Shown: positions 1 to 61,657 of the stretch, in pieces
How the letters are laid out: each line of letters opens with the position of its first letter
Position numbering within the stretch: the first letter of the stretch is position 1
Origin: Raillietiella orientalis
Taxonomy: Eukaryota
DNA length: 61,657 nt
Reading direction: 5' to 3'
NCBI GenBank assembly: GCA_036172245.1
Contig: JAYWIR010000096.1
Span: 186,001-247,657 of the forward strand
Notes under the pieces: model-generated
Told to the model about the DNA's origin: nothing
Database searches by the model: none
Seen by the model: the letters and a program-made list of their open reading frames with translations, nothing else
Position numbers and translations under genes: made by a program

Positions 1-83
1 CTCTAAGAAGGGCGAAAACGTACAGAAACGGAGCGAAACCGCTCCGCGCCACGAAAAAACCAAAACCTGCTGCGTCGTCGTTT
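1..83 (+). mobile_element. LINE ORF1 fragment (D-related subfamily), cut by insertion of F1; continues left of window
   Basis: Reads SKKGENVQKRSETAPRHEKTKTCCVVV, matching HKKGKNVTKRSETALRREKIKSCCVVVV in the ORF1 at 44058-44672(-). Confidence 0.75.
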
Positions 84-2149
84 ATGACCCGGTTGCGCCG
101 GGACGTTTATTAAAATATCAACTAAGAACTGTGTTCCCAGGCAAGAAGAACAGAAAATGGGGAGTAGATTTCCCAGAACGCAGTCCGGGCACACTGAGAG
201 TTCGCAACGGGAGGGGGTGAAACAATAAATAAATAAATTGGTTGGGAGGGAGGGGATAGGTGTATACTGTTTAACCGTTCCTATTCTCAGAACCGGCGGT
301 GAATGCCGCCGATATCCGTCCTCACTTCTGCTCCAAGATGTGGCCACCCAGCAGCCATTTGCAGGTTGCAGGCTGCGGTGTCGGGGACCGATGTTAGGAC
401 TGCTCGCCTCTGCAATACGTGACGGGCCCTGACAATGGCGCGGACGCAGCGGATGATTGCGACGACCGCTCCAAGAGAAAGTCCGCCACGCGTGTACAAG
501 CGGCGCATCCAATCCAGTGCGGTGTGTCCAGGGTGCAGGAGCGCTGAAGACAGCCGTTGCCACAGCTCCTGGAGGGCACCGCACTCAAACAGCATATGCG
601 GAAGCGATTCCACCGCTCCGCATTTGGCACAGTTCGGAGACGCAACTCCCCCGGGAATCAGGTGCGCCCGCTGGTTGCAGTACAAACCCCAATGCACCAG
701 CAGAAAAGCGTCCTGCTTCCACCAAAGGGGGAAAAGAGTCGCGTCCAAACACGCAGAAGGGACCACAAGTTCATCGGTCGGCACCCCGAGAAGCTCACTT
801 TACCGGAGAAGCCCCTTTGCAAGAATGCGAGGTGTGACAGCGTCTGCCACTTCGCAAGTCCGTTAGCCGCCCAGCAGTCGGGTTTCGCCTGCGATTTCGC
901 AAGTGATCTCCCACCTCGCCGGCAGGTCACTGTCATCTCGCACCATCAGTGCACACAGTGCTTCGGCGAGTGGCGTAGCGGCTAGGCGTGTCCACTGGTC
1001 CTGGTCTTCCAGCACCTCCCTTACTGGACAGTATGGGGAAAGTTCCACGCAACGGAGTTCCAAACGGGACACATCCTGTTGCGCTGCCCAGGACGATAAG
1101 GCTTCCTGCCTTTAGGCGTTGAAGTTCGCAACCGGCAGGAGATCCACTCATGCTTTCCCAGAAGCGTGGCGAGCTGCTTCAAAGGGAAGCCGAATCCTCT
1201 CTGGGCGCCCTCCGCGCGCAGATTCAACGAACGTAGTCCGTCGCCACCCGTGCTGCGCCGCAGCAGCAGCCGCGCTAAAGCACACCAGGGAGTAGTCCAG
1301 AGCTGCGCACAGAGTGCCAGCATGCGGAACTGCACTAGCAGTCCGATCCGCTCCAGCGTGAGGATGCCCAATCCTGCATCCCGCCGAGGAGCCGCCAAGT
1401 CCTTCAGGCGTATCCTTGACTTCGCCGGTCCCCAGAGGGCGTTACGCAACAGGCGTTGCGCCCGGCTCTTAGCCGAGTGGGGAGGCGGACAAACAAGAAA
1501 GAGGGGACGGAGGAGGCAGGCAACGAAAATGTTCCACACAAAGACCCGTTCCGACAAGAGAAACCTGCCGCCTTGGAACGAGCCCAGAGCAGTCTCGGCC
1601 TTATGAAGGCAGTCCGAGCACGATTCTGCTGGACAGAAGGCGCCCAACGGAACGCCGAGGTACTTCAAGCACCAGCCCGTGAGGATCCCCAGGCGGATCC
1701 AGTCGGACTGCCCCTCCCACGTAAAGCCAACCGGTGGAACGGTTGATTTCGTCCTGTTCACGCTCAGGTCCGCTCCCCGACGAATGAGCTCGAAGAAGTC
1801 CTCGAGCCTGGACGCCGGAGTGGACATGGGCAGCAGCAGGAGAAGGTCGTCAGCATAGGCGGCCACGGCCGATGTTCCCGGGCAGGAGCTCGGCAGGTTG
1901 GCCAGCGTCAGCCTGTACGCCCTCAGCACCAGCTGAAAGAAGATGCTAAAGAGCAGGGGGCTTAAGCCGTCTCCCTGCCTGATACCCCGCCGCATGGGAA
2001 CACCGTACACGTGACGCCCGCTGAAAGAGATACAGCATAACGCGTGGCGCCAACAGGAGCGCAAGTAGGCGATGAGGTGCGTCGGGAGCCCTAGGCGTCC
2101 CAGAAGCTCCAGAAGGAGTTCCTGGTTTACGCTGTCGAACGCCTTGTGC
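84..2149 (-). mobile_element. LINE F1: 3' half (RT, C-terminal zinc motif, 3' UTR and terminal hairpin), interrupted at the RT motif by D3
   Basis: HKAFDSVNQELL at ~2149-2110; RRGIRQGDGLSP, AYADDLL and KYLGVP in ORF 1021-2064; CAKCGAVESLPHMLFEC in ORF 287-784; AATAAACGTCCCGGCGCAACCGGG end at 86-111. Confidence 0.92.
287..2149 (-). pseudogene. F1 ORF2 (RT plus C-terminal CCHC), frameshifted and truncated
   Basis: Collinear ORF pieces 1021-2064 and 287-784 in different frames, with RT motifs QGD, YADD and YLG. Confidence 0.9.
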
Positions 2150-2354
2150 GCTCCAGGGTGGACGTGTTTTCTCGGTGCTCCTCGTGCCAGGAAGTCTCCC
2201 CAAGTGCAAGCGTCGTGTGGTTCGGTGGTCGATCAGGCTGCGATGCCTGACGCGACCACCAGGGATGGCCAGGGGGCAGCGGCAACGCCGCCCCCAGAGG
2301 CGATGGAGAGCCAGGGGGCGGCGGCAACGTCGCCCCCAGAGGCGATGGAGGTGG
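2150..2354 (+). mobile_element. LINE D3: 5' end and ORF1 start only
   Basis: Near-identical to the D1 5' end (reverse complement of ~23040-23244) and to D4; starts gctccagggtggacgtg; encodes MPDATTRDGQGAAATPPPEAMESQG. Confidence 0.93.
2269..2350 (+). repeat. Two-copy tandem repeat (~42-bp period) in D ORF1 N-terminus (QGAAAT[P/S]PPEAME)
   Basis: ccagggggc(a/g)gcggcaacg(c/t)cgcccccagaggcgatggag occurs twice; also present in D1 (~23045-23126) and D4 (~60631-60712). Confidence 0.9.
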
Positions 2355-2824
2355 ACGTTAAAGTCCCCCGCAATGAGATGGGCCACAGTAGGGTGAGATC
2401 GAAAGAGCCACTGCCCTTGAAGCGTACCGAAAAACTCAATACTTTCGGCCCATCGTCCAGCACCGCTCGGCGCGTACACGTTGGTTACGACAAGGTCGAT
2501 CGAGTCGGACCACTTGAGTACAAGCTGTCCCACTCGGCCTTCCGTGTCGAAACGAACGCTGCGCACCGCTTTCGCCAAAGTTCATCGCACGAGGAAAGCG
2601 ACGCCGCACGTACGTGCAACGCCGCACCTATAAAGTAACGTTCCGCCCGCGCGCCGTTAGATTTCTACAGCCTGCTCTCCGGAGATGCTGTGAATCTCCT
2701 GCAGGAGCGTCAAGTCGAAAGCGCGCAGAGCGTGAGCCACTAGTCGCCTCTTCTCCTCATGTTGGAGCCCGTTGACGTTCCAAGACGTTACGGCAACACG
2801 ACCAGAAGACGCGATTGCCCTCAT
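2355..2824 (-). pseudogene. BC1 ORF2 N-terminal APE endonuclease fragment
   Basis: TGATG stop/start at 2826-2822; VVTNVYAPSG and HLIAGDFNVH in ORF 1946-2578. Confidence 0.88.
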
Positions 2825-3540
2825 CACGGCTGGGAAAGCGAGGCCGTGGTGCTCGCCTCACCCGTCGAGCGGGCAGTAAGCAGCACGAAGGGCTGGAGGG
2901 CGCGGTCGCCACCGGTCTCAACTGTGCTGCACGTAATCGGGTGCTCCTCCCAAGGTGCAGAACCTGTGGGTTCCGGGGTGAGCACTCGCCGTTCCGCGGC
3001 GAGTGTGTCACGCCTCAGGGCTTCAGCCCTGCGGGCGCTCGCTCCCGCGCGAGTAACGCGTCGTTCAGCTGCGTACACGCACTCCTTTGCGGAGTCTGAT
3101 GCTCGCATGATCGACGTGCGCTTGCATCCGTCCGATTGCAACGGAATGGTCTTCTAGGCGGTCACAGAAGCGGACTTGCACGCGTTGAAGGCGCTGGCTT
3201 TTTCCTTGGAAGAGTCACAAGCCGCGCGAGTTCTTGTATTCCCGCGACTGCTTTCTCCTTTGGAAAGGCTCAGGGATGGAGGTTGCGGAGCTTTTTTTGG
3301 AGATTTTTCTTTCCTGCTCTCCACAACCTTCTATTCGCCTTCGCGATTTTCGGAGGCTTCCGCGACAGTAGTTGCGGAAACCTCCGGGATTTCCGCTGCG
3401 TTCTCTGGAGGTGTTGCTTTCGCTACGCCTTTAAAAGGCGGCAATGGAGTCACCTTCTTGACAGTCGGGAGATTGCTCCTCTCCTGCCGTGTCGGTGAAC
3501 TTGCTCCGCGGCTCAAAGTATTGTGCGATTGACAAAGTAA
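2824..3540 (-). pseudogene. BC1 ORF1 C-terminal part (after the A1 insertion)
   Basis: ORF pieces 3331-3516 and 2824-3141 match ORF 39014-39643; ends SLSQP-stop overlapping the ORF2 ATG. Confidence 0.82.
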
Positions 3541-3546
3541 TCAGTT
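3541..3546 (+). promoter_or_regulatory. Initiator-like TCAGTT at the 5' end of family A
   Basis: Conserved at the first bases of all three A copies (3541, 38926 minus, 50867); fits the TCA(G/T)T(C/T) Inr consensus. Function inferred. Confidence 0.45.
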
Positions 3547-3667
3547 AATTGTGCTCGTGTGTACCCGGAGAGGGGAAGTTTTCCAGACGAAACCAACAAT
3601 AAGAAGCGGGGAGGAGATCGCGGCAAAAGACCTGCAGTTGTCCCGTGCAGCAAGACCAGCTGCCAGG

Positions 3668-5427
3668 ATGCAGGCACCTAGAGGAGGAGTGGAGAGACCG
3701 TCGTCCCCCATGGAAGCCATGGAGGTAACGTGCGGCAACGGCGAGGCGGTGGCAGGCATGCCGAGGATCGCGCCCGCGGCGGGCTTTGCTGCGCCGGCGG
3801 CGGCGATGCCAAGGGTCGTACCCACGGCGGCGACGCCGAGGATCGTGCCCGCGGCGGGGAAGGTCGCGCCTGCGGCCGCGATGCAGAGGGTGCCGCCCGC
3901 GGCGGCAACGGTGGCGACGTCGAGGGTTGCGCTCGGAGCGGCGGCGTCCCAGTGTGGACCCGCGGGCATCCACGCGGTTCAGGGCGAGACGCCATCTTGT
4001 TCGGCTGCGGTGGCGCAGCCCTTTTCCTATGCGTCGGTGGCGGCTGGACAAGCGAGTGTCCACCCACCAAGAAAATTCGGGAAGCCGCTATGCGGTAAAG
4101 TCCAAATGGTGGATCGGCCGATCGTGGAGTTAGGGACGAATGTGAAGCCCATCATTTTCAAGATTGGACTGATCAAGTTCAGTAATATTAGGGAGGTGTA
4201 TCTGTCCCTTGATAAAACGGACATGAATTTTGATCGCATACAGGCGATCATACCAGCAAACAACGGGTTCACAGTCTTCACAGACTGTGAAAAGATAAGA
4301 GAGCGATTGATCCATAAGGGGATCAATATACAAAGGAGGATGGTTTGTGGTGTTGGCGAGATGCCATACACAACCGTGTTTCAGTACGGCATCTCCATCC
4401 TCACACCGCAACTAACGGTGTGGAACTTTTTGGAGCAGTATGGGGAAGTTCTGGACCTTGAACTCCAAAACTTCTCTGGAAAAATATTTTCTGGCGACAT
4501 GATCGCCAAAATGAAGTTAAAAGAGGGAGCTGTGATCCCTGGATTAGCCGTTCTTGACGAACAATCCCAGAGAGTGAACGTGCGTTACCGGCAACAGCCG
4601 ATATTCTGCACCGGGTGCAAGCAGTTCGGCCACAGGGCCGGCGCTTGCCCAACGTGTCGTTGTTTCCGCTGCGGCAAAGTAGGACATCAAGTCCGAAACT
4701 GCCGCAGCCGGAGGTGTGCTCCTTCTGCAAGAAACACGGACATGCGAAATCGAGCTGTCCGGAGTTTGCAAACTGCAGAAGGATTCGAGGTCTCTCTCCC
4801 GTGAGAGAGAGAAACACGAAGGGGGCGGAACAGCCTCAGAAGGCAGGAAGGCCGAAGAAGGTGAAAGAAGCAGTCCCGGTATCGAAAGACGGCTTCATAC
4901 ATGTAGGGAAGAAAGGAAACAGGAGGATGCTCGTCAAGGAGCAAGGAACCCCTCTCACCCTACAAGGTGAAGAGCAAGAAGGCGAGAAGATGGAGGTAGC
5001 GCAGGAAGGCGCGGAAGAAGAAATAGGCGAAGCCACTCCGGTGTCGCAGGAGGCCCTGCAATCTACGCAGGAGTTGGCATCACTGGCTAGTGTAGTCCTA
5101 GAGGTGCAGAGCGGTCCCCAGCAAGAGAAAATCTTGCAGAAGATCTGCAATGCACAGGAGAAGGTCAACCAGGTTGTGGAGGTCACCGAGCGCGAAAAGC
5201 TAGAGGAACAGCTTCTCGATGTAAAGGCGAACTTCTGCGCCAAGGTCCAGATAAAGACGCTATCTCGAAAACTGATCGAGCGGGCCGAACACTCGACGGA
5301 GGAGGCGGAAGTAACCGACCTCACCGGAACAGAGAGTGACGCCGGCAGCGAGAAGCCCGCTGCTTCTTCATTGTCTGGAAGAGCACGCTATCTCAGACAG
5401 AAGAAGCTCAGGAAGGCCAAGAAATAG
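3668..5427 (+). pseudogene. A1 ORF1, gag-like zinc-knuckle protein; 1-nt frameshift near 4702
   Basis: CTGCKQFGHRAGAC, CFRCGKVGHQVRNC and CSFCKKHGHAKSSC are split over ORFs 3551-4804 and 4615-5427; uninterrupted in A2 (36954-38801). Confidence 0.9.
3758..3950 (+). repeat. Ala/Pro-rich degenerate tandem repeat in A ORF1
   Basis: MPRIAPAAGFAAPAAAMPRVVPTAATPRIVPAAGKVAPAAAMQRVPPAAA; A2 and A3 carry one extra unit (TTAEVVPAA / TTVEVVPGA). Confidence 0.8.
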
Positions 5428-5440
5428 GTCTTCCCTTTTT

Positions 5441-8400
5441 ATGGCCTCTTCCCTATCGACCGCCAGGAGGCTGAACATCGCCTCCTGGAATGTAAACGGT
5501 ATGGTCGACCAGGGAAAAAGAAGAAGTATTGTGCGGACCATCGCACAACAAGACATAGTGTGCCTGCAGAAGACCCACAAGATGGGTCTCGAGATTAGTC
5601 AGCAAATGGAACGGCGATTCAACGGGCAGATTTTCGTCAGCGAGGGAGAACGGAACACGCAGGGTGTGGCGGTCCTAATCAAGGACAACTTGGCCCCCAC
5701 TATTCTGGAAGTGTTCTGTCCCCAACCCGGACGAATCATCGGCGTGCGACTCGCCTGGTCCGCTACTGTTCACCTCATCCTGGTGAACGTGTGCGGGCCG
5801 CACAGGCTAAAACATCGTTGTGCGGAGGCGCTGCATGCAGCACTCCGTGGAAAGGTTGCTTCAAAGGACGTCGTGATTGTTGCTGGCGATCTCAACATAT
5901 TGGATGAGATCACTCACTCCGAAGACGCCAGAGGAAGGACGCCGTATCGGCGATTATCCGACGAGTTCGGACTGGTGTGGCGAACTGCAAGTCACAAGCC
6001 GATCGATCACGTCCTGCACAGCACCGAACTTGGGAACCGCATCCAGGGGTTTCGCGACACTATGACTACGGTGTCCGATCACCCCCTGGTGCGGTTTTCC
6101 CTAAGAACGGAGAATCCTCGGCGGAGGCAAGGCACCAGGGCAGCGCTCATCAGCATGCCCGCCTGGTTCGAAACCCATCCCGGACATCAGGCTGTCCTGG
6201 AGGCGATTCTGAGGGCAACAACAATCCGAAGAGTCGCCGACTGGGACAGCCTGAAACACAGGATACACCTGTTTGCGAACATGCAGTTCGGGGATAGGCG
6301 CTTGAGGCAAGAGGCGTACCGGGAGCTGAACATCCAAGATCGCTCCCTCTCAAAGTACTTCGATCAGTACGAGAGTCGGTACGTCCTCAATAACATAATA
6401 GGGGAAGTCGGCGTGCTGGAGAAGAGAAATCTGGCAACAGCTATCTTCTGCATCCAGTACGACGGCCAAAAGCGACAGTCGTCTGAGGACATCGTGGATG
6501 CCTTTCACAGGCATTACACGAAACACTTCAGGCGACAACAGCTGTGTCGCTCTAGTCAACAGGCATTCTTGAGCTATCTCGAGAAGAGGACCGACGACCT
6601 CCAGCGGAACAGACTGGAGGAGGAGTTCTCCGAAGAAGAGGTGAAGACTGCGTTTGGGCAACTTCGCAAGGACGTGGCAGCGGGCCCTGACAGTGTACAC
6701 ATCACGCACTATCAGCGGTACCTGCACGCCTACCTGCGCTTGTTCCACCAGTTGACCCTCTGCATCCGGGAAGAAGGCAGACTACCTCAGTCCTTGTACG
6801 AGAGTCGGATGAGATTGCTGCCGAAACGAGGCGACTCTACCCAGATCGCCCAATGGAGGCCAATCTCGATCCTAAACTCCGATGCCAAGTGGTTGGCAAA
6901 GATCTGGTCCAACCGCTTAGGCAAGGTCATGTCGAGGCTGATCTCTCCGGTCCAGACATGTGCAGTCCCAGGACGACACATGTCGGACAATGTCAAATGT
7001 GCCCAGGCCACTGTTGGACTCAGTCGATACGTCGGCGAGAACCTGGTGCTGGTGTTCACTGACATGGAGAAGGCCTTCGACTCCATCGACCATGGGATGC
7101 TGCTGAAGGTTCTGGAGAAGCTAGGGCTTCCGAAACACTTCAGCAACTTCGTGAGGGCGGTACTCCAGAACCAGTACTGCCGGATCAAGATCAACGGCCA
7201 GGAGATGGCAGCAATCAGGATGGAACGAGGAGTCCGACAGGGCGACTCGCTGAGTCCGATGCTGTTCGTCATCTATATGGAGGCGTTGTCGTCCTTTATC
7301 GAGAAGAGCGGACGACTAAGCGGGATTACCATCGATAGCCAGCGTCTTACCCATCTGGCATACGCCGATGATCTACTCTTCTTCATCAAGGGAGAGAAAA
7401 ATCAGCGTGCCTTTCTGGATGTGGTGGACCAGATGGAACAGGGCTTGGGCTTAAAAATATATTCCCAGAAGAGCCAGCTTTTGCCCGACGGAATACTGGA
7501 TCTCTCCACTCTAACGGGTAGTGGATTCCGTACGGTCGACACGGCCAAGTACCTGGGAGTCTACATCGGCGACGGCTCTGCGTCGAAGCTGCTGTGGAAG
7601 GAAATCCTGGGGAAAACGGCCAAAGAAGCAGCCAAGTACACCCGAACGGACCTTGGGATGAAGCGAAAGGCCATCATATGGAACGGAGTACTCCTTCCGA
7701 AAGTGCTCTTCGGGGCGGCCTTCGCGAGGATGAACAAGGACACTACTAGGGAGTTCGACAAGCTGCAAAGAAAAACACTCTGGGGCCACTATCGCCCAAG
7801 AGTAAGACTGAAACCCCTGTGTCGTCCCAGGGAAGAAGGCGGTTCCGGGATAAAGTCGCTTGCACATTCCATGGAAATCATGGATACGCGACACATCCTG
7901 GACATTGCCACTTAGTGGGATGACTGGCCGTATGCGGCGCACGGGGCATACGCGTTGCTGCTTAACAACTCGGAAGGCCTGATGACTGCGCTGCTAGGCA
8001 AAGTAGGGGACTGGATAACAATCGACCCGACCTGGAGGAGGAAGCAACGGCTGGTGCGGAAGCACCAAATCAAGATCGTGCCGCGAAGCAGAAAACTCTG
8101 GCAGGACGAGTCCATCCTGGTGATCCCTTGGTTGCTTCCTGTCCCGCCGGACACGAGAAGCTGGATCTACCAGCGGTCCAGAGTTACCCTACTGCAAATC
8201 CAGGAGTGGAGGCGAGGAGGCTACCTACATCAAACACGTATACTTCGGTATACAGAGATGATGTTAGGAAGGTTTACCCACAGGACCCGCGAAGTGTGGT
8301 TCAACCACAACGACTTCGCATGGTCGAGGGTAACCAGAACAAACCTCCGAAGGCTTATCCAAGAAAACGAACGTGACACCACTGCCCTCCAGGAAGTCAC

Positions 8401-8959
8401 CGAACGCTACGGGAGTGAACGGTTCAACCTGTTAGCGATCGGCACGACGCTCTGGAGGAGTGACCTTCCGCCGGGCACCCAGGATGACCTCCTGATGTTT
8501 TATCACGGAGGAATCCAGAGTGGGTCCCGATTGCAGCACTTCACAGGAAGACGGGAAGACCGAGACTGCGCAGCATGTGGAGACGACGACAAGAGACTTC
8601 ACGTCTTGACGTTTCCCTCACTGCTGCATGTCTGGCTGATCCTGGAAAGGATCATAGGACTTACCAACAAGTCCGTTATGGAGATCCTCGCCGGGATGTT
8701 TCATGGGGATGGTAATGTTCCCTGTTACAATCCCATGGTGAGGACGACCATAGCCCTCTTCATCACCGCCATACTTGTGCGGTGGTGGAAAATGAGGAAA
8801 GCCAGGAGAGTCGCACCACCGATGGAGATCCTACAAGGGCACTTGAAGAGGGAAATCGGCATCAGGAACTGCGGGAAGATCCACTCCTGGACGTACCGAT
8901 TCATCCTGAAGAGGATCCGGGACGACGCCCGGGACCATCCAGCTGGAATTTCCCCCTGA
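5441..8959 (+). pseudogene. A1 ORF2, APE endonuclease-reverse transcriptase; one in-frame TAG at 7913-7915
   Basis: SWNVNG, AGDLN, IDHVL, SDH; WRPISILNSDAK, DMEKAFDSIDH, GVRQGDSLSP, AYADDL, KYLGV; ORFs 5336-7915 and 7955-8959 share a frame; the catalytic QE reads QK in this copy. Confidence 0.94.
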
Positions 8960-9062
8960 AAAGCAGAACACTAGTGCAACCCAAGGACCCCCAAGTGCAA
9001 AATGTTTGTATTGAGTGAATGAGAGTGCGAATGTAAATTTTGTATTTTTGTAGAAAAATAAA

Positions 9063-10339
9063 CTTACCCCACACCTTGTGGGACTTGGGGAAACCTTCCG
9101 ACTCGGCGATGAAGCGACTGCATGCAGCGTGCTTTTGCTCGTCGCGACGCTGCTTTTTACGGCTTTCGTAGCCTTTGCAGTGGGGCCTGCGCTGCAGTGG
9201 CGCTGTCCGGAACTCGGAAGGGACAACGAAACGGGGCAAGAAGTCTTCGCACTGTTGCGATCTTCCTGTTTTCCTACCATTCCCTCCAGGGTGTTACGGA
9301 GATTTCCTGGTTCCTGGCTCGGAGAGGTGCCTGCGAGCTCGGCAGAGAGGGAAGCCATGGCACGCGTCAAACCCTCGCGCCCCTTTTTAATTGTCTTCCC
9401 CGCCGTGACTTTCCCCTTTCGGGGCGTTGCGGGCGGGGATGCTTTCTTTTGATCCGCGGATCGCTCGTAGTTTTTTGCGAGTTTTTGCGGACGACGTTTT
9501 TTATTTGCTGCTGCGGCTTTTCGTGCAGTGGTCTCTTGAACCCGACGAATTTCCACTGCGGCTCTTTTTCTTGCAGGTACCGGGCACTTTTTGATTTCGT
9601 GCCCGGAATCTTTGCAATAGCGGCATCTTGGAGAGGGGCACTCTTTAATTCGGTGCCCCTCCTTGCCGCACTGCTCGCACGCACGAGTCTGGCCTATGAA
9701 CCACAGGTGAACGACCGTGCCGTTCAATTGCAGCTGCTCAGGCACAACACGCCTGTTCGCGACGGTGATCCGCGCGGAGGCTTGTCCAATGTGGACAGAG
9801 GGGAAATCCTTTAAAGGATTTGGCCTCCTACACAGTGCGTGCACGGTGGCGAACTTCGCCAGCACACTTGCGACATCGCGGTCGGAGATTTCCGGTTCGA
9901 TGTCGCACAATTGAACGACAAAAGAGTCGTCCATCGCGGTAGGTAGGACTTCCTTGCCATTGATGGTCAACGGCGTATGGAGAAGGCGCTGCACAAGTGC
10001 TGCGTTCTTGCACCGAATCTTCGTATATTCCATCCTGCCAGCAGGCATTATGGCAAGGAGTTCCTCCTCGCGAACGCCTATCCGGACGAGCTCATCATTG
10101 AGCTCACGACCGATTCTCCCGTTAAGTGGCCCACTGACCTTATAACGGAATGCAGGCATGTATCCTGATGACACATATGCCTGGAACTTCGCATCGCAGG
10201 TTCCTGGTCTTTGGGAGGTAACGGCGGCGTAACTCCTCACCGGAGGCAAGGAAACCATTACGGAGGATGCGGCCACTTCAAGTGCAGCTGAAGTGCACCC
10301 AGTGGCTTGCTCCTTCACACTATCCTGTGTACTAGCCAT
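9063..10339 (-). pseudogene. BC1 ORF1 N-terminal part (two CCHC knuckles), interrupted by A1
   Basis: CEQCGKEGHRIKEC and CRYCKDSGHEIKKC in ORF 8831-10339; the last ~75 codons of that ORF are read-through into antisense A1. Confidence 0.9.
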
Positions 10340-10459
10340 GTTGCACTATGCTACTTGGCAGGTTGCACAGGAACACACAAGTGCGAGCAAAAACGCAGGC
10401 ACAAAGTTGCCCGATCGTTGGCACGGATAGACGCGGAAACACGTCTGCACTGTACGAGC

Positions 10460-11192: not shown

Positions 11193-11408
11193 TTTCCACC
11201 CGGGTTCGCTCGGGGCGTCTATTGTATGAAACTCTACAAGAAAACGTGGTACAAGGCCCCACTAACGGCCACACAACACCGGATTTGCCGGGACGCCGGG
11301 ACGCAGCCCGGCGTGACGCTCCTCGGCAGTGGAGGGGGATAGGGATCAAAACAAAAAGAAAAATAAAGATAAGGAAAACAAAAAAGAGTTTGGAGGGAGG
11401 GGAAGGGA

Positions 11409-45700: not shown

Positions 45701-45721
45701 GCACCGCCGAAAGTCGGCGAA

Positions 45722-50866: not shown

Positions 50867-53800
50867 TCAGTTGATTGTGATCGTGTGTGCCCGAAGAGGA
50901 AAAGTATATAGAAGAAAGTAAGTGTGGACTAGATTGCTGCATAGGATCTCCTCATACAGCTACAAAAGAAGCGCCGAGGAGATCCCGGCGGAAGACCTGC
51001 AGTCGTCCCGTGCAGCAAGACCAGCTGCCAGGATGCAGGCAACTGGTGGAGGAGTGGAGAGACCGTCGTCTTCCATAGAAGCCATGGAGGTAACGTGCGG
51101 CAACGGCAAAGCGGTGGCAGGCATGCCGAGGATTGTGCCCGCGGCGATCTTTGCTTTGCCGGCGGCGGCAATGCCAAGTGTAGTGCCCGGGGCGACGACG
51201 GTGGAGGTCGTGCCCGGGGCGACGACGCCAAGGATCGTGCCCGCGGCGGAAAAGGTCGCGCCTGCGGCGGCGATGCCGAGGGTGCCGCCGGCGGCGGCAG
51301 AGGTGGCAACGTCGAAGGCTGCGCCCGCGGCGGCGGCGTTCCAGGCGGGATCCGCGGGCGTCCACGAGGTACAGGGCGTGACGCCATCTTGTTCGGCTGC
51401 GGCGGCGCAGCCCTTTTCCTATGCGTCAGTGGCGGCTGGACAAGCGAGTGTCCACCCGATTAGAAAATTTGGAAAGCCGCTATGTGGAAAAGTTCAAAAG
51501 ATAAATCGGCCGATATCGAGTTAGGGCCGAATTTAAAGCCCATTACTTTCAAGACTGTGCTAATAAAATTCAACAGTATCAGAAAGGTGTATCTGTCCCT
51601 GGATAAAACAGATATCGATTTCGATCGCATAAAGGCGATTATACCAAGTAGCAGCGGTTTCACAGTATTTACAGACTGTGAAAACATCAGAGAGCGACTG
51701 ATCCAGAAGGGGATCAATATTCAAGGAAGGATGGTTTGTGGCATTGGCAGAATGCCATACACGACCGTCTTCTTAAACGGCATTTCCATCTTCACACCGT
51801 AGCTAACGGTGTTGAACTATTTGGAGCATTTTTGGGAGCTCCTGGACCTTGAATTCCAGAACTTCTCTGGAAATATATTTTCTGCCGACATGATCGCCAA
51901 GATGAAGATGAAGGAGGAAGCTGTTCTACCTGTGTTGGCGTTCATTGAGAAACAATCCCAGGGAGTAAACGTGCGCCACCGGCAACAACCGGTATTCTTC
52001 ACCGGGTGCAAGCAGTTCGGCCACAGGGCGAACACTTGCCCAACATGCCGTTGCTTTCGCTTAGGAAAAGTAGGACATCAATTCCGAAACTGCCCGCAAC
52101 CGGAGGTGTGCTCCTTCTGCAAGAAGCACGAACATGCTAAATGGAGCTGTCCGAAATTCGCCAAATTGCAGAAGGATTCGAGAACTCTCTCCCGTGAGAG
52201 AGAAAAACATCAAGGAGGCCAAGCAGCCTGAAAGTTGGCAGCAAGGCCGAAGAAGGTGGAGGAAGCCGTCCAGGATTTGACGGACGGCTTCATTGAGATA
52301 GGAAAGAAAGCAAAGAGGAGGATGCTCGTCAACGAGCAAGAAACCCCTCTCATCCTAGAAGGAGCAGCACAGAAAGACGAAAACATGGAGTTAGCGCAGG
52401 AAGGCGTGAAAGAAGGAAACCAGGAAGCCAAACCAGTGTCGCAGGAAGCCCTGCAGTCCACGGAGGAGCTGGCAACACCAGCGAAGGAAGTTATGGAGGT
52501 GCAAACCGGGCCTCAGCAAGAGAAAATCTTGCAGAAGATCTGCAATGCACAGGAAAAGGTGAACCAGGTTGTAAAGATAACCGACCACGAGACGTTAGAA
52601 GAACAGCTTCTCGACGTGAAGGCGAACTTCTGCGCCAAGGTCAAGATAGAGGCGCTATCTCGAAAATTGATCGCGGGCCGAACACTCTACGAAGGAGGCG
52701 GAAGTAACGGACCTCACCGGAACAGAGAGTGACGCCGGCAGCGAGAAGCCCGCTGCTTCTTCATTGTCTGGAAGAGCACGCTCTCTCAGAGAGAAGAAGC
52801 TCAGGAAAGCCAAGAAATAGGACTTCCCCTTTTATGGTCTCTTCCCTTTCGAACGCCAGGAGGCTGAATATCGCCTCCTGGAATGTAAACGGTGTAGTCG
52901 ACCAAGGAAAAAGAAAAAGGATTGTGCGGATTATCGCACAACAAGACATAGTGTGCCTGCAGGAGACCCACAAGATGGGTCTCGAGATTAGTCAGCAAAT
53001 GGAGCGGCGATTCAACGGGCAGATTTACGTCAGCGGGGGAGAACGGAACACGCAGGGTGTGGCGGTCCTAATCAAGAACCAATTGGCCCCCACTATTCTG
53101 GAAGTGTTCTGTCCTTAACCCGGACGAATCATCGGCGTGCGAATGGCCTGATCCGCCACGGGTCACCTCATCCTGGGGAACGTGTACGGGCCGCACAGGG
53201 TGAAACATCGTTGTGCGGAGGCGCTGCATGCAGCACTCCGTGAAAAGGTCGCCCCTAAGGACGTCGTTATTCTTGCTGACGATCTCAACATATTGGATGA
53301 GATCACTCATTCCCAAGACGCCAGAATAAGGACTGCGTATCGGCATCTATCCGACGAGTTCGAACTGGTGTGCCGAACAGCAAGTCACAAGCCGATCGAT
53401 CACGTACTCCACAGCACCGAACTAGGGAATCGCATTCAGGGTTTTTCAGACACATTGAACACTCTGTCCGATCACCCGTTGGTGCGTTTCTCCTTAAGAA
53501 CGGAGAATGCGCGACGGGGGCAAGGCACCAGGGCGGCGCTCATTAGCATGCCCGCCTGGTTGCAGATACATCCTGGATATCAGGAGGTCCTAAAGACGAT
53601 TCGGAAGACCACAAAAATCAGAAGAGTCGCCGACTGGGACAGCTTGAAACACAGGATACACCGGTTTGCAAATATGACATTCGGGGATAGGCGCTTGAGG
53701 CAGGAGGCGTATCGGGAGCTGAACATCCATGATCGCTCACTCTCAAAGTACTTTGTTCAGTACGAGATTCGGTACGTCTTCAACAACATAAAAGGGAAAG

Positions 53801-56457
53801 TCGGCGTGCTGGAGAAGAGAAATCTGGCAACAGATATCTTCTGCATCCAGTACGACGGGCAAGAGCGACAGTCGTCCGAGGATATCGTGAAAGCCTTTCA
53901 CAGGCATTACACGAAACACTTTAGGCAACAACATCTCTGTCGCTCTATTCAACAGGCCTTTCTGAGCTACCTCGAGAAGAGGACAGACGATCTTCAGCGG
54001 AACATACTGGAGGAGGAATTCTCCGAAGACGAGGTGAAGACTGCTTTTGGACAACTGCGCAAGGATGTGGCGGCGGGACCTGACAGTGTACCCATCACGC
54101 ACTATCAGCGGTACCTGCATGCCTACTTGCGCTTGTTCCACCAGTTGACCCTCTACATCCGTGAAGAAGGCAGACTACCTGAGTCCTTCCACGAGAGTAG
54201 GATGAGATTGTTGCCGAAAGGAGGCGACCCAACCCAGGTCGCTCAATGGAGGCCAAACTCGATCCTGAACTCCGATGCCAAGTGGTTAGCGAAGATCTGG
54301 TCCAACCGCTTAGGCAAGGTCATGTCGAGGCTGATCTCTCCGGTCCAAACGTGTGCAGTCCCTGGACGTCACATTTCGGACAATGTCAAGTGTGCCCAGG
54401 CCATCGTCGCACTCAGCCGATACGTCGGCGAGAACATGGTGCTGGTGTTCACTGACATGGAGAAGGCTTTCGACTCCATCGACCATGGGATGCTGCTGAA
54501 GGTTCTGGAGAAGCTAGGCCTTCCGGAACACTTCAGCAACTTCGTGAGGGTGGTACTCTAGAACCAGTAATGCCGGATCAAAATTAACGGCCAGAAAACG
54601 GCAGCAATCCGGATGAAGCGGGGAGTCCGGCAGGGCGATTCGCTAATTCCGATGCTGTTCGTCATCTACATGGAGGCGTTGTCGTCCTTTATCGAGAAGA
54701 GCGGACGACTGCAAGGCATAACCATCGATGGCCAGCGTCTTACCCATCTGGCATACGCTGATGATCTACTCTTTTTTATCAAGGGAGAGAGAAATCAACG
54801 AGCATTTCTGGATGTGGTAGACCTGATGGATCAAGGCCTGGGTCTAAACATCAACGCCCAGAAAACCAGCTCTTGCCGGTTGGAATCCTCGATTTCTCCG
54901 CTCTAGCGAAGAGATGATTTCGAACGGTGGACACGGCCAAGTACCTGGGTGCCTACATTGGCAACGACTCCTCGTCGAAGCTGTTGTGGACCGAGATCCT
55001 AGGAAAAACGGCCAAGGAAGCAGCCAAGTACACCCGAACGGACCTAGGAATGAAGCGAAAGTCCAACATATGGAATGGAGTACTCCTTCCAAAAGTGCTC
55101 TTCGGGGAGGCCTACGCGAGGATTAACAAGAACACCACGAGGAAGTTCGACAGGCTGCAGGGAAAAATTCTGTGAGGCCCCTATCGCCCAAGAGTTCGAC
55201 TAAAACCCTGTGTCGTCCCCGGGAAGAAGGCGGTTCCGGGATGAAGTCGCTTGCACACTCCATAGAAATCATGGACACGCGAGACATCCTGGACATTGCT
55301 ACTCACTGGGATGACTGTCCGTATGCGGCGCACAGGGCTTATGCGTTGTTGTTGAACAACTCGAAAGGCCTGATGACTGCGCAGCTAGGCCGAGCAGCGA
55401 ATTTATAAAAATCCACTTAACCTGGACGAGGAAGCAACGGCTGGAGCGAGAGCACAAAATCAAGATCGTGCCGAGAAGTAGGGAACTCTGGCAGGACAAG
55501 TCCATACTGGTGATCCCCTGGATGCTGCCTGTCCCGCCGGACACGAGAAGCTGCATCCACCAGCGGTCCGGAGTTACCCTACAACGAATCAAAGAGTTGA
55601 GGCGAGGAGGGTACCTACATCACACTCGTATGCTTAGGTATATAGAGATGATGTCACGAAGGTTTACCCACATGATCCCCGAGGTGTGGCTTAACCACAA
55701 CGATTCCGCGTGGTCCATGGTATTCAAAACAAACCTCCGAAGATTAATTCGGGAAGAAGACCGTGACATCAGTGCCCTCCAGGAAGCCTCCGATTGCTAC
55801 GGAAGTAACCGGATCAAACTGCTAGCGTTCGGCACGATGCTCTGGAGGAGTGACCTTCCGCCGGGCACCCAGGATGACCTCCTGTTGTTTTATCATGGAG
55901 GAATCCAGAGTGGGTCCCGATTGCAGTACTATACCGGAAGACGGGAAGATCGAGACTGCACGGCATGTTGAGACAACGACACGAGACTTCACGTCTTGAC
56001 GTGTCCCACATTGCTGCATGATTGGCTGATCCAGAAAAGGATCATCGGACTCACGAACAGATCCGTAATAGAGATCTTTGCTTGGATGTTTCAGGGGGAT
56101 TGTAATGTTCCCTGTTACAATCCCATGGTGAGGACGACCATTGCCCTCTTCATCACCGCCATACTTGTGCGGTGGTGAAAAATGAGGAAAGCCAGGAGAG
56201 CCGCACCACCGACGGAGATCCTACAAGTGCTTTTGAAGCGGAAAATCGGTATTAGAAACTGTTGGAAAATCCAAGCATAGACGTACCCATTCATCCTGAA
56301 GAGGATAGAAGACGACGCCCAAGACCAAACAGCAGGAAACCCACCATGACTGCAGAACTTGTGAACCCATGGACTTGAGTGTGGTAAAAACTGTGCAAAT
56401 GGTATGAATGAGACTGTAGTGTGAATGTTTTTGTTGAAAAATTTTTTGAAAAGTAAA
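50867..56457 (+). mobile_element. LINE A3, full length, degenerate
   Basis: TCAGTT start; ORF1 from ~51033 to ~52820 in pieces; ORF2 pieces 52729-53118, 53182-54561, 54613-54906 (YADD) and 55468-55971. Confidence 0.93.
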
Positions 56458-57734
56458 TTTATTCCACTTCTTGTGGGACTTGGGGAAACTTGCCGAGTCG
56501 GTAAAGGGGCGGCTGCATGCAGCGTGTTTTTGCGCGGCGCTCCGCGGCTTGCTACAAGTTTCGTAGCCGCCGCAGAGACCCCTACGTTGGATTGAGGATT
56601 TGCCGGTTTGGGAAGGGAAAGCGGGTTGGAACTGGAAGTCTTCGCCCTATGGCGATCTTCTTGCTCACCTACCTTTTCTACCGAGGTTCTTAGTACATTT
56701 CCCGTTTCCTGGATTGGAGTGGTGTTTCCCAGTGCGGCAGCGAGGGCGAACACGTAACCCGTCGAACCCTCGCGCCACTTATTAATGGGCTTCCCCGCCG
56801 CGATTTCTCCATTTTGGGGCGTTGCGGGCGGGGACGCCTTTGGTATTCCCGCGTATTGCTTGGCTCTTTTGCCAAGACACCGCGGACACGGCTTTTTCTT
56901 GAGGGCAGCGGCCTTTCGTGCGTCTGTCTTTTGAACGCGACGAACTACCGCTGCTGCCGTTTTCTTTGCAAGCACCGGGCACTTTTTTATTTCGTGTCCG
57001 GTTTCTTTGTAATAGCGACATTTCGGCGTAGGACATCCCTTTATTCGGTGTCACTTCTTGCCGCACTGCTCGCACACGCGAGTCTGTCCTAGAAACCACA
57101 GATGAACGACCGTGCCGTTCACCTGCAGCTGCTCGGGCACAACACGCCTGTTCGCGACGGTGATCTGCGCGGAGGCTTGTCCAATGTAGACAGAGGGGAA
57201 ATCCTTAAGAGGATTTGGCCTCCTCCACAGAGCGTGCACGGTGGCGATCTTCGCCAGCACACTTACGACATTGCGGTCGGAGATTTTTGGCTCGATGTCG
57301 CACAATTGAAGGACAAACGAGTCGTCCATCACGAAAGGCAGGACGTCCTTGACACCGATAGACAACGGAGTACAAAGAAGACGATGCACCAGTGCCGCGT
57401 TTTTACACCGTATCTTGGTGTATTCCTTCCTGCCCGCAGGCATGATGGCAAGGACCTCCTATTCCCGAACGCCGTTCCGGAGGAGCTCATCGTTGAGCTC
57501 ACGCCCGGTCCTCCCGTTAAGGGGCCCACTGACCTTATAACGGAGGGCGGGCATGTATCCGGATGCCACATAAACCTGCAACTTCGCATCGCAGGTACCT
57601 GCTCCCTGGAAGGTGGCGGCGGCGTAGCTCCTTACCGAAGGCGTGGAAACCGTCGCGGAGGATGCGACCGCTTCCATTCCAATGGAATTGGATTCAACGG
57701 CTGTCTCCTCCACACCATTCCCAGAAGTGGCCAT
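56458..57734 (-). pseudogene. BC3 ORF1 N-terminal part
   Basis: MATSGNGVEE..YKVSGPLNGRTGRELNDELL and LWRRPNPLKDFPSVYIGQ are homologous to BC1 ORF1. Confidence 0.88.
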
Positions 57735-57890
57735 GCTGCACAACGCTGCTTCGTCCTCTTCCAAGAAACGCACAAGTGCGAGCGAAAACGCACGCACAAA
57801 GATGCTCCATCGAGGACGCGGAGAGACGCGAAAACACGTCTGCACTGTGCGAGCGCAAGAGATCGAAACGATCGCGGAGGGGCAGCTGTT

Positions 57891-60460
57891 TATCACCCGG
57901 ATGCGCCGAAGCGTTTATTGTAAACTATTAGGGAACAGGGTCTCTGGACAAAGGGGAACACAAGAGACGAAGGGGGTGGGATCCCTGACACGCAGGTCAG
58001 TATGCCGAAAGTCCGAAACGGGAGTGAACGCACCACAAATACACTACTAGCAAAAAAAAAAAAAGCCAACATATGGAGGGCAGGGGACAAGGGACTTTGG
58101 TAAGTCCGTTTCTTCCTTTCAAAACCGGCGATGGATGCCGCCGAACTCTCTCCTTACGCCCTGTGGTAGATGGGCCCACTCGGCAGCCGACGACATGTTT
58201 GTGCTGGCTAATCCGGTGTGCTGACGAACTATGGCCAGCTTCTCCAACTCTCGGTGGGCCTTGTAGATGGCGCGGGTGCAACACACGGTTGCAACGACAG
58301 AACCCAAAGACAAGCCGCCTGGCGTGAAGAAGCGGCGCATCAAGTTCCTCACGGTGTCTTCCTGGTGCAGGAGAGCTGACGGCAGCCTCCGCCAGAGTCC
58401 TTGGAGGGCAACGCAGTCCAAGAGCAGGTGCGGGAGCGTTTCCACTTCCCCGCACAGCTTACAGTTTGGGGAGGCAACTCCCCCGGAAACAAGGTTTGTG
58501 CGCTGGCTGGAGTGAAATCCCCAACACACCTGCATGATGACGTCCTGCTTCCATGAAAGAGGGAACACCGAAGTGTTCAAACAGGAGTTAGGGACCACAA
58601 GTTCTTCGGAGGGCACACTCGAGTGTTCGCTAGACCGAAGGAGTCCCTTCGAGATGAGGCGAGACGTGGCGGCGTCTGCCAGCTCGCAAGTCCTCCAGCC
58701 GCCAATAGGTCGTGTTGTTCCTGCAATGGTGCAGTCGACCTCCCATCTCGCCGGTTCGCGGCTGTCATCTCTTGCCCTGAATGCTGACAGTGCGTCGGCG
58801 AGCGGCGTGACAGCCAGGCGAGTCCACTCCTCCTGGTTGTTGCACACCTCGTCCACCGTTCAATACGACGACAGGTGAGCGCAACGAAGTTGCATGAGGG
58901 AAACATCCTGGTGCTTTGCCCAGCCATTCAACGGTTCCTGCCGCCAGGCTTGAAAGTTTGTTGGGGGGCAGGACATCTATTCCTGGGCTTCCAGGAGCCG
59001 GTACAGCGGTTTCAAGGAGAAACCGAAGCTTCTCATGGCGCGCTCCGTGTGCGGCCGCAGCGACAGAAGTCCAGCGCTGCCTGTGCAGCGCCGCAGAAGC
59101 AGGCGCGCGGGAGCGCACCACGGAGTGGACCAAAGGTTGGCGCACAGGGCCAACATTCGAAGCTGCACCTGCAGCTCGATTCTCTCCAGAGTCAGGATGC
59201 CTAAACCAGCATCCCGACGCGGAGCCGTCAAGTCTTTGAGGCGCATCCTGGACCTCGCAGGTCCCCACAGAGCGTTCTTCAACTGGCTGTGCCACTGGAG
59301 CTTGGCTGAGAAGGGGGCGGAAAAACAAAAAGCAGGGGGCGCAAGAGGGGGCAACGAAGGTTTTCCATATCGTGGCCCGCTCCGACAGGGCGAACCTGCC
59401 ATGTTGTAACAAGCTCAGGGAATTCAAAGCCTTCCGAAGGCAGTCCGACCACACTTCCACTGGGCTGATGTTCCTCAGCGAAACGCCCAGATATTGCATG
59501 AAGGAAACGGTCGGGATTTCCAGGCGGATCCTGTCGGACTGCCGTTCTAACGCCGCATTAATAGGTACAACCACGCTCTTGCTCCGGTTTACGCTCATGC
59601 CCGCTCCCCGGCGAATCAGGTCGAAGAAATCCTGGAGACTGGACCCCGAGGTGGTCATGGGAAAGTGAATAAGCAGGTCGTCAGCAAAGGCAGCCACGGA
59701 CGGCGTTCCTGGACAAGAGCTCAAATACGCCACGAGGTGCACCGGAAGACCAAGACGTTCCAGCAGCTCCAGCAGGAGATCCTGATTTACGCAATCGAAC
59801 GCCTTGCGGAGATCGACCGCGACCGCCAAGGCACCCGGCGCTTCCTAGGACCGAATGCAGCGACGCCTAGGTTGGGCAGCCGAAGATGCGGTTGCCTGGC
59901 TGTCGTGCACCACGCAACGTTGCAGCTCGAGCCGCGTGCGCGCGAAGAACAGGTTCTCCTCCATGGACCGCCCGGGAAAAGCATAAGACTGCTCCGGACT
60001 TACCACAGATCCAGCGATCCTGCCTAGGCGCGCGACCCACAGCCTGGAGAACTTGACGTCCGCATTCACCAAGGTGATGGGACGCCAGATGCTTAAATGG
60101 CGCATGTCTCCGCCTTTCGGCAAGAGACGTACCCTTGCTGAGCGTGACGAGGCCGGTACATTGCCCGTCTCTCGCATCAGCGCAGAAAGCCTCAGCACCA
60201 GGGGGATGAGTTACGCCGCGAAGCACAGGAAGAACTCCGAAGGCAGACCATCGTCACCTATCGCCTTGCGCTTCTTGAGGCCCGCTATGGCGAAAAACAC
60301 TTCTTCCGCCGTGAAGCGCAAGTCAAGAGTGGCGCGTTTCTTCTCGTCGACCGCAGGGGAATCCTCCAGCAGAAGCAGCTCCGAGAGACTGCGTTATGTC
60401 GGTACCCTAGCATACAACGAGGAGTAGGAGCGCCTTAAGAGGAGGCGAACGGCGGACGCA
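57891..60460 (-). mobile_element. LINE F3, 5'-truncated, degenerate RT-CCHC plus 3' end
   Basis: WRPITLVNADVK, DLRKAFD, AFADDLL, CKLCGEVETLPHLLLDC; the segment with the QGD motif is deleted near 59720; terminal motif at 57891-57919. Confidence 0.9.
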
Positions 60461-60554
60461 GAAAAACGTTTTTTTTTCCCACAAAAAACATCTTTTTAAA
60501 CACTTTATTATCTAATTTTTGTAAAAAATTAGAATAATAAATGCCCCGGCACAT

Positions 60555-61657
60555 AAGTCTCCCCCAGTGCAAGCGTCGTATGGTTCGGTGGTCGATCAGG
60601 CAGCGATGCCTGACGCGACCACCAGGGATGGCCAGGGGGCAGCGGCAACGCCGCCCCCAGAGGCGATGGAGAGCCAGGGGGCGGCGGCAACGTCGCCCTC
60701 GAAGGCGATGGAGGTGGGGGCATCCGCCCCCACAGAATCGGTCCCCGCTGCAGCGCGGGCGTGGAGCGGCGTTGTGTCGGCGCCATCGCCTGCAGCCGCG
60801 GCGAAATTGTCGGCCTATGTAGAGGACGGGTACAACCCCTCATTATTCTACAAGGTAGGCAATTTATATTCTTTAGAAAGTGCGGGCGCCTTCTCGAAGG
60901 GCATGCGTGCTCTCGATGTGAAAGAGGAGGAGCTCAGCGCTATGACCATCCGCAGAGGAAGTCAGTACGTTGAGGTGATCTGCAAACAAGCAGAGCTGGC
61001 ACAGCGACGGCTTAAAACCCCCTTGGTGATGGGGACGCGCAGGCTCCTCCCTATTATGGCGGACCGCAGCATGGTGGTCCACCTGTTAAGTGTTACCGCG
61101 CGGATGCGCAAGGAACAGGTTCGCGCCGCGTTGGAGAAATACGGAACGGTCCACGCGCAGTGGACGAAAGTTAGTCCTTTCGAAGACTACACGGGGCTGC
61201 AACACGGCCTCACTGCTGCGCGCGTGACCGTTCGAGGGGGCTGCACTCTTCCCCACAAACTGGTGGTCGAAGGCGAAACCGTCGACCTCTGGTATGTGGG
61301 GAAGCCGAAATACTGTGGCTTCTGCAATGCGTCGGGCCTCCTCAAAAAGAGGTGTCCCAATGTGCAGTGCCAAGTATGCGGCACAATGGGCCGCACGAAG
61401 GAGGTGTGCCCAAAAGCAGCAGTGCGGGTGGTTTCCAAGAGAAACCTTAAAAAACGCGCCCGGCTTCTGCAGAAAAGGCTGGCGGCAAAAGCTGCCGCGA
61501 AGGCTGTTCCAACCGCGCCCAAGACCCAGGCCGCACCCGAGACCCCGGCGACCAGCGCCGAAAAAGTTGAGGGAGCCGGCCAGGAGACTGGGTGGCAAGT
61601 GGCAACGGCCAAAAAAACAAAGAAGGAGAGGAGGATGGAAAAGAAAATCGCCTACCA
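60555..61657 (+). mobile_element. LINE D4: lacks the first ~40 nt, runs off the window end
   Basis: Highly similar to the reverse complement of D1 ~22100-23202. Confidence 0.93.
60606..61657 (+). CDS. D4 ORF1 (partial, open to the window edge)
   Basis: ATG at 60606 (MPDATTRDGQG...); no in-frame stop seen; knuckles read CGFCNASGLLKKRC and CQVCGTMGRTKEVC. Confidence 0.8.
   Translation, partial: MPDATTRDGQGAAATPPPEAMESQGAAATSPSKAMEVGASAPTESVPAAARAWSGVVSAPSPAAAAKLSAYVEDGYNPSLFYKVGNLYSLESAGAFSKGMRALDVKEEELSAMTIRRGSQYVEVICKQAELAQRRLKTPLVMGTRRLLPIMADRSMVVHLLSVTARMRKEQVRAALEKYGTVHAQWTKVSPFEDYTGLQHGLTAARVTVRGGCTLPHKLVVEGETVDLWYVGKPKYCGFCNASGLLKKRCPNVQCQVCGTMGRTKEVCPKAAVRVVSKRNLKKRARLLQKRLAAKAAAKAVPTAPKTQAAPETPATSAEKVEGAGQETGWQVATAKKTKKERRMEKKIAY

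Follow-up and report, generated by a model that had tools for sequence, protein, structure and literature searches.

The question raised by this locus is how long interspersed nuclear elements (LINEs) come to be inserted in one another, at the same points and on opposite strands, over tens of kilobases. The locus is a 61,657-nt stretch of Raillietiella orientalis DNA (GenBank assembly GCA_036172245.1, contig JAYWIR010000096.1, positions 186,001 to 247,657 of the forward strand), here called the window and numbered from its first nucleotide. We consider it likely that this nest was built by a guild of recently active LINE families that carry an apurinic/apyrimidinic-type endonuclease (APE) and home to sites in the coding sequence of their siblings.

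The GC content of the 61.7-kb window was 53-64% in 2-kb steps; it had zero Ns and long open reading frames (ORFs) on both strands. A Pfam scan of the 23 ORFs of about 300 amino acids (aa) or more gave matches to RVT_1, Exo_endo_phos or zf-CCHC in 14, and several of the nine without a match were ORF1 tails or long antisense frames. The window was tiled on both strands by tblastn with its own ORF1, APE and reverse transcriptase (RT) proteins, and an Rfam search of it gave zero matches. The entire window is assignable to LINE elements, and it is a nest of LINEs of the APE and RT type. The only odd pieces in the map were a 64-bp fragment resembling a 3' untranslated region (UTR; 60490-60553) and short junction fillers, which agrees with an earlier note, made from the sequence alone, that had recognised no non-LINE DNA apart from ~95 bp.

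Fixed insertion sites in sibling coding sequence

At least eight families were found in the window (A, D, BC, E, F, G, H, and I; Table 1). Sequence-specific insertion into a multicopy target, the feature tested for the Tx1 clade, was found in D (3/3), BC (3/3), and F (2/2). D1, D2, and D3 join their hosts (H, I, and F1) at the identical nucleotide of RT motif A (..HKAFD), and D1 is flanked by a perfect target duplication (15/15 bp), GCACAAAGCATTCGA, at 17659-17673 and 23245-23259, which encodes ..HKAFD. All three BC copies share the site TTCGATCTC, ~12 codons past the LQE motif in the APE; the host is H for BC1, D2 for BC2, and G3 for BC3. The two F copies, F2 in G2 and F3 in G3, lie ~30 bp from the BC site and differ in position by no more than 1 nt. 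Each of the other sites was seen as a single event: the intact 5' end of G2 adjoins I at RT motif 1 (N-A-D|A-K-L), E is inserted at LPxGFG between the APE and RT of H, and the 3' end of F1 comes directly after the ..CCVVV motif of an ORF1 (ECSVV in D1).

The insert copies were 89-97% alike (BC3 excepted), whereas the host flanks were 62-79% alike. The D ends were 92.3% and 97.5% identical, and the D host flanks 67.2% and 75.8%. BC1 and BC2 were 94.3% identical with flanks at 71.7%, and identity dropped to ~70% as soon as the BC end was passed; BC3, with 73-77% identity to BC1 and BC2 at the ends, is older. For F2 and F3 the identity was 88.7%, with 79.3% in the 29-bp flank and 69.2% between G2 and G3 over the ~300-bp stretch compared. 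Because the inserts are more alike than the host flanks, the D, BC, and F copies are independent insertions and not copied blocks. This supports the view that several LINE families target the coding sequence of related LINEs in a sequence-specific manner. The earlier proposal that the coding sequences of related LINEs serve as a niche was likewise supported, by identical D, BC, and F sites in hosts only 62-79% alike.

The explanation that we propose builds on what was directly shown, namely the junctions themselves, identical sites, independent events and common termini. Each family would insert by target-primed reverse transcription (TPRT) at its own fixed sequence in the coding region of a sibling LINE. 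D would target RT motif A, where the host sense strand would be nicked after ..GCATTCGA and the 15-bp duplication would be produced. G would target RT motif 1; the targets would be two sites a little beyond the LQE motif of the APE for BC and F, the LPxGFG linker for E, the ECSVV motif of ORF1 for F1, and the C-terminal part of the BC ORF1 for A. Conserved coding motifs would offer a multicopy and harmless target, a putative safe haven like rDNA for R1 and R2. Orientation would be fixed in each family by site recognition, since nicking of the host sense strand would yield an antisense insert.

At the D junction the host sense strand ends in ..GCATTCGA-3' and runs straight into the complement of the D 3' end, and because of this continuation we take the host sense strand to be the primer for reverse transcription. 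The same arrangement was found for BC (..GAGAT-3') and in the remaining antisense classes. Families differ in nick sequence, which would point to a specificity encoded by the proteins. A possible self-immunity of D was also considered; the motif A of D itself is only 1-2 nt off the D target, with T instead of C after the nick site.

A and the other families share 25-35% aa identity in ORF2, and D, BC, E, F, G, H, and I share 45-65% with one another (tblastn). These seven families have a common 5' end, GTGGACGTGyTTT, and a common 3' end, AATAAACGCCCCGGCG...CCGGGTGAnAA, which was found in 10 elements. A terminal hairpin folds at 9/10 of these 3' ends, in the exact CCCCGG/CCGGGTG form in D1, D2, H, F2, and BC2 and as variants in F3, F1, E, and I; the 3' end of BC3 is degenerate and does not fold into the hairpin. 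These hairpins come from single folds, and RNAalifold gave a trivial 3-pair structure owing to a 1-nt loop offset. The A 3' end is analogous (AATAAAC-hairpin-GGGGAAA).

Pfam placed Exo_endo_phos and RVT_1 in the A ORF2 and in adjacent ORFs of D, and the best PDB match of A and D was human LINE-1 ORF2p (E 2e-32 and 2e-50). Matches to zf-CCHC were found in three ORF1s, one of them under the Pfam cut-off, and the D ORF2 has a C-terminal C-x2-C-x7-H-x4-C motif, CVRCAERESLPHLLVDC. The signature of TPRT is present in the 15-bp duplication of D1, in the conserved 3' termini and in the 5'-truncated F2, D2, F3, and D4. By these features the elements would be classed as APE-type retrotransposons without long terminal repeats, of the L1/Tx1 superfamily in the broad sense.

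The ORF2 of A1 (1,215 codons; 5315-8959) and that of D1 (1,220 codons; 17894-21553) have only one in-frame TAG each, and because of this we regard the guild as recently active. A1 and D1 are very young dead copies. Programmed read-through at a conserved stop was considered for A and D and rejected, as the A1 TAG codon is CAC in A2 and A3 and the D1 TAG codon is ATG in D2.

Orientation of the inserts

All 14 insert/host pairs of the earlier note were found again on opposite strands, with coordinates within ~3 bp: junctions given there as 84, 2150, 10459, 25807, 28075, and 28345 were re-mapped to ~82, 2149/2150, 10459, 25808, 28073, and 28344/28345. What was named G1 in that note is the full-length E here, and its E is our H-right. 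Two junctions were visible for D1, E, BC2, BC3, and A1-A3, and one for F1, D3, BC1, F2, G2, D2, and F3.

Element 3' ends were listed through the common terminal motif, together with the three A ends, which gave 14 in the window. Eleven of them (11/14) adjoin opposite-strand host DNA. The other three, which the earlier note does not mention, are followed on their own strand by an element with a truncated 5' end: H|F2 (25364), I|G3 (~45703), and W|D4 (60553). The claim that the orientation is always opposite held for the 14 pairs but is not established, given these 3/14 ends; the pairs also fall into about seven site classes from essentially two lineages, in line with the earlier caveat that the events are not all independent. 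Six of the classes come from one clade with common termini, are phylogenetically dependent and may owe their mode of insertion to inheritance. Antisense and same-strand cases stand at 14:0 or 14:3 by event and at 7:0 or 7:3 by site class, and the one-sided binomial probability by class is 1/128 when the three abutments are excluded and 0.17 when they are counted as sense insertions. The antisense pattern is real in this window and is not yet shown to be a rule.

The same-strand abutments could be template-switch chimeras or sense insertions. At the W|D4 join there is a GCAC microhomology, W is without its last ~13 nt and D4 without its first ~44 nt, features which would fit a template-switch chimera better than a sense insertion. 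The 5' sides of H and I, which would decide between the two for the other joins, are lost.

The strongest alternative concerns the cause of the orientation: a shared mechanism would force the antisense outcome, the host sense (non-template) strand being exposed and nicked, so that orientation would be a rule rather than an accident of each family. Exposure could come from an R-loop formed during transcription of the host, or from sibling RNA pairing with the host template strand at conserved motifs. Such a mechanism would account for the antisense orientation of 7/7 resolvable site classes and 14/14 pairs, including those of the distant A, and for targets at the motifs most conserved between insert and host; moreover, a same-strand junction from host-internal sequence to an insert 5' end was not seen among the 5' junctions. 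However, the exact site differs in each family and there is no common nick consensus, which protein recognition fits better than homology pairing; 3/14 element 3' ends adjoin same-strand DNA, and six of the classes have common ancestry. We consider a forced orientation unlikely.

A broader version of our own explanation is put forward tentatively, as a possibility about which we remain doubtful. LINE coding DNA would be the niche of a radiating guild of at least seven sister families and one distant family, each with its own nucleotide-precise homing site in essential motifs of the others (RT motifs 1 and A, APE, and ORF1) and all priming on the host sense strand by a shared mechanism, and the result would be a self-feeding, LINE-only chromosome domain, possibly a centromere. 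The orientation rule would in this version come, for instance, from a nick in the non-template strand or from exposure guided by RNA where motifs are conserved.

Several points weigh against a guild that homes to sibling coding sites. The sample is one 62-kb window with 2-3 events per family, and the assembly was compared with short contigs of one sequencing run. Six of the nine non-A motif A sites are unoccupied, among them perfect or near-perfect targets (E, BC2), and 3/9 carry D. Only one junction is visible for 7/14 pairs. The target duplication of E is imperfect, and H-left and H-right may be different elements. The three same-strand abutments are unexplained, all of them joining the 3' end of one element to a second element that is 5'-truncated. 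The join at 2349 connects the D3 ORF1 (aa ~69) to aa 187 of the BC1 APE and needs a deletion or rearrangement. Finally, the APE is a putative determinant of the specificity, proposed from sequence comparison.

Family A inside BC and the integrity of the array

A1, A2, and A3 lie at the same place in 3/3 BC copies, between the zinc knuckles of the BC ORF1 and ORF2. When a target duplication around A was sought by k-mers, only a weak GGAAACCT(T)CCG match came up, and the A 5' ends are therefore approximate. The composite of A inside BC, 8-9 kb long, is present in three copies with 83-90% identity. The same tree, (1,2)|3, was obtained from BC and from the 5' third of A, and in both of them copies 1 and 2 showed ~5% neutral divergence.

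The dN/dS of the A ORF2 was 0.18-0.22. Comparison of the A copies (5315-7912 vs 34540-37130 and 52705-55310) showed that between A1 and A2 the first 200 ORF2 codons were neutral, with a dN/dS of 0.99 and a dS of 0.05, like BC1 and BC2, whereas the remaining codons had a dS of 0.13-0.40 and a dN/dS of 0.12-0.21. Because neutral 5' codons stand against a constrained remainder, A is a mosaic of lineages under purifying selection, which suggests recombination or template switching between A sublineages. We lean towards independent site-specific insertions of A into BC with template switching; copying of a BC and A composite that was later converted is given somewhat less than even weight. Under either reading A in BC is one orientation class.

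The repetition of this composite and the shared tree and divergence are also what could be expected if the repeated junctions were produced by duplication or gene conversion of blocks of host and insert together. But the identity of the host flanks falls to 62-76% directly beyond the D and BC ends. Each of the three BC copies is intact at its 5' and its 3' terminus and sits in a host of another family, and the 3' two-thirds of A1 and A2, with the dS and dN/dS given above, are separate selected lineages. Block duplication is very improbable as the general cause and would at most make the travelling of A within BC one event instead of three.

Regional targeting would explain the nest as accumulation in a centromere-like or heterochromatic, recombination-poor zone, as has been proposed for Zepp and ZeppL; the LINEs would strike one another for want of other DNA, with orientation set by chance. 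The window holds no other DNA, and LINE-only clusters are described for green-algal centromeres in the available portions of four papers (PMC3446292, PMC8226300, PMC9940879, PMC11005252); however, nucleotide-identical points in diverged hosts, with eight events in three families, would be unexpected, and we give this account hardly any credence.

That the array or its odd joins (2349, 25364, 45703, and 60553) are an assembly artefact is equally hard to believe: repeats at 83-97% identity are hard to assemble and the join at 2349 has no insertion logic, but the copies differ by 3-17% and are not collapsed duplicates, there are zero Ns, and contigs from a public sequencing run bridge A junctions. 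This run (X1) shared 0.26 of the words of the window in a search of sequencing runs. Its short contigs were 88-99% alike across 1-20000, and some span the junctions at the two ends of A with 94-96% identity; X1 may come from the same organism, so the bridging contigs are not independent proof. The joints listed for X1 on 1-20000 were cross-family alignments and not empty sites. Two other runs, X2 and X3, matched 1-20000 at low-complexity spots only, and no RNA runs sharing the words of the window were listed in the search.

The positions of all elements are given in Table 1.

Table 1. Elements of the nest in order along the window
Element	Positions	Strand	Context and basis
Host 'a', D-like ORF1 fragment (..KKGENVQKRSETAPRHEKTKTCCVVV)	1..81	+	Cut at ECSVV-type motif by F1 3' end; 83% DNA match to D2 ORF1 at 44394-44317(-), translations align
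F1, LINE 3' part (RT aa 173 to 3' end)	82..2149	-	D3 cuts off the upstream part at RT motif A; tblastn with D_rt aa 173-790, 3' terminal motif 102-111, motif A site 2135-2149
D3, first 200 bp of D (5' terminus and ORF1 start)	2150..2349	+	97.5% identical to D1 5' end
BC1, from 5' end to APE aa 187, carrying A1	2349..10459	-	90% match to BC2; 5' junction alignment
A1, full-length (ORF1 423 aa; ORF2 1,215 codons, one TAG)	3387..9093	+	Pfam APE and RT; 5' boundary approximate; 3' end ..GGGACTTGGGGAAA
H-left, APE aa ~78-326	10460..11192	+	tblastn; between BC1 (left) and E (right); ~71% identical to D2 flank; translation finishes ..HRLPTGFG
E, full-length, decayed ORF1 and ORF2	11193..16829	-	Inserted in H at LPxGFG linker
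H-right first part, APE aa 317 to RT motif A	16830..17673	+	Ends with D1 target copy 17659-17673
D1, full-length (ORF1 468 aa; ORF2 1,220 codons, one TAG)	17674..23244	-	Perfect 15-bp target duplication
H-right second part, RT motif A to intact 3' end (..CCGGGTGGAAA)	23245..25364	+	tblastn, 3' motif
F2, 5'-truncated, ~430 bp after ~14 bp filler	25365..25808	+	3' end in G2 APE; same strand as H
G2, G 5' part (5' terminus, ORF1, APE start)	25809..28073	-	Cut by F2; 5' end adjoins I at RT motif 1
I first part, RT motif 1 (..DKLIAGLW) to motif A (AVDLHKAFD)	28074..28344	+	Translation; site 28330-28344
D2 3' part, 3' end to APE aa ~71	28345..31992	-	92.5% identical to D1
BC2, full-length, carrying A2	31993..43568	+	In D2 APE
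A2, same place in BC as A1	33357..39080	-	5' boundary approximate
D2 5' part, APE aa ~82 back to ORF1 aa ~154, 5'-truncated	43569..44685	-	tblastn
I second part, RT aa ~539 to 3' end	44686..45703	+	tblastn, 3' motif; ~1.1 kb of I gone next to truncated D2
G3 first part, ORF1 C-terminal region to APE aa ~82	45704..46382	+	Same strand as I
BC3, full-length, carrying A3	46383..57860	-	In G3 APE
A3, same place in BC as A1 and A2	50711..56488	+	5' boundary approximate
G3 second part, 29 bp from BC site to F site	57861..57889	+	
F3, APE-RT linker to 3' end	57890..60489	-	At F site of G3
W, 64-bp LINE 3' UTR piece without last ~13 nt	60490..60553	+	
D4, D copy without first ~44 nt, runs past window end	60555..61657	+	93.8% identical to D1, 96% to D3

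Some further features were noted within the elements. Over A, the summed depth of X1 contigs rises from ~13 at the 5' end to ~50-65 towards the 3' end, with 9-13 over BC (1-20000; depth is not copy number), which would fit many extra 5'-truncated A copies elsewhere. Tandem repeats of 27 bp (and 48/75 bp) are present in the A ORF1 (3760-3910, 38536-38711, and 51173-51270), and the N-terminal region of the G2 ORF1 has a 24-bp x 6.4 repeat at 27721-27871; both regions have the look of low-complexity sequence that varies. Near the ORF1 start, a 42-bp tandem duplication is present in every D copy (2268-2350, 23044-23126, and 60631-60713), and D3 is cut exactly where its duplication ends (2350), at the join to BC1. 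A perfect 19-bp inverted repeat with a 6-nt loop (45722-45765) lies directly after the I 3' end, at the start of G3.

Long frames also lie opposite LINE ORFs, among them a 515-aa stop-free frame antisense to the E RT. Examples are 11317-12864 (+), 14666-15862 (+), and 23914-24591 (-), and such frames recur in other copies. The first two were scanned against Pfam, with zero matches, and the frames seem to have arisen from GC-rich codon usage and not to be genes.

Relatives, known systems and significance

Almost no public relatives were found. Those of the D RT were sought among 1.84 billion protein representatives. One protein was 70% identical and one fragment 64% identical; the next best match was at 38%, and all others were at or below 40%. 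The best public protein match of A had ~25% identity. Public matches carry zf-RVT (PF13966), as in plant-type L1s, at only 24-29% identity, and no named Coccomyxa or Chlamydomonas proteins were among the protein-search matches. A metagenome scan with the common 3' motif gave at least 118 loci; 3/118 of those listed passed a loose tail filter, zero were real relatives, and the matches are chance hits. One public protein, P0044 (1,555 aa), matches the D RT in seven separate stretches at 38% identity and may be a gene prediction that spans a comparable LINE nest of another organism.

Zepp and ZeppL form nested L1 clusters that target existing copies, with tandem arrays of 3' ends at putative centromeres, according to the portions available of the papers that describe them (PMC3446292, PMC8226300, PMC9940879, PMC11005252). 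The window resembles the clusters of Coccomyxa and Chlamydomonas, which in the available text are LINE-only, GC-rich, L1-type and tens of kb long (PMC3446292, PMC8226300); all window DNA being assigned to LINEs, it shares the LINE-only nesting of Zepp and ZeppL. The three same-strand head-to-tail abutments also resemble the Zepp 'tandem arrays of 3' ends' as described there. Unlike Zepp, which in these descriptions is one family (two in some species) inserting into itself in tandem arrays, the window has at least eight families at exact coding-motif sites, mostly antisense, with 11/14 of the 3' ends adjoining the opposite strand. Made by description, the comparison is no more than an analogy.

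According to five papers (PMC3446292, PMC8226300, PMC9940879, PMC11005252, PMC4640811), the APE LINEs that are target-specific are members of the Tx1 and R1 clades, and the idea that a multicopy sequence is a harmless target niche is given in the introduction of one of them (PMC4640811). By their insertion habit, the elements of the window can be likened to these clades as APE-type LINEs with nucleotide-precise multicopy targets. Known cases are Tx1L in Tx1D, Keno in U2, Mutsu in 5S and R1 in 28S rDNA, the target of Tx1L being another transposon. In the window, unlike in those cases, the targets are conserved coding motifs (RT motif A, RT motif 1, and APE) that belong to sibling LINEs, and several sister families each occupy a different site.

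The precise 3' junctions are like those of R1 and R2 homing, and read-through transcription of a resident D would yield RNA with a stretch complementary to the primer strand that is nicked. R1 and R2 lie sense to the host gene and are co-transcribed with it; in contrast, the elements of the window are antisense and must use their own promoter.

The same-strand abutments are like L1 template-switch chimeras of the U6/L1 type, with the complete 3' end of one element followed by a 5'-truncated second element on one strand, three times here. Unlike in U6/L1 chimeras, both partners are LINEs with the same 3' hairpin. As chimeras, 3/14 ends would far exceed the mammalian template-switch chimera frequency.

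A full-text literature search found no paper on LINEs homing to LINE coding motifs, with the limit that junction details in the original Zepp papers may overlap with this finding. Nested clusters of the Zepp type and site-specific LINEs of the Tx1 and R1 clades are already known; the homing of sibling LINEs to each other's coding motifs would be a further variant of these. Known targets of site-specific LINEs are rDNA, small RNA genes, telomeres, microsatellites and one DNA transposon. Here the targets are conserved codons of catalytic motifs in competing LINEs, and the host element is divided among sister families as separate homing sites. Should this be true genome-wide, it would provide a concrete mechanism for the growth of LINE-only clusters of the centromere type, and a natural series of closely related APE and RT proteins with different DNA specificities in which the encoding of target choice could be read. 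It would also be a case of transposons parasitising and inactivating each other.

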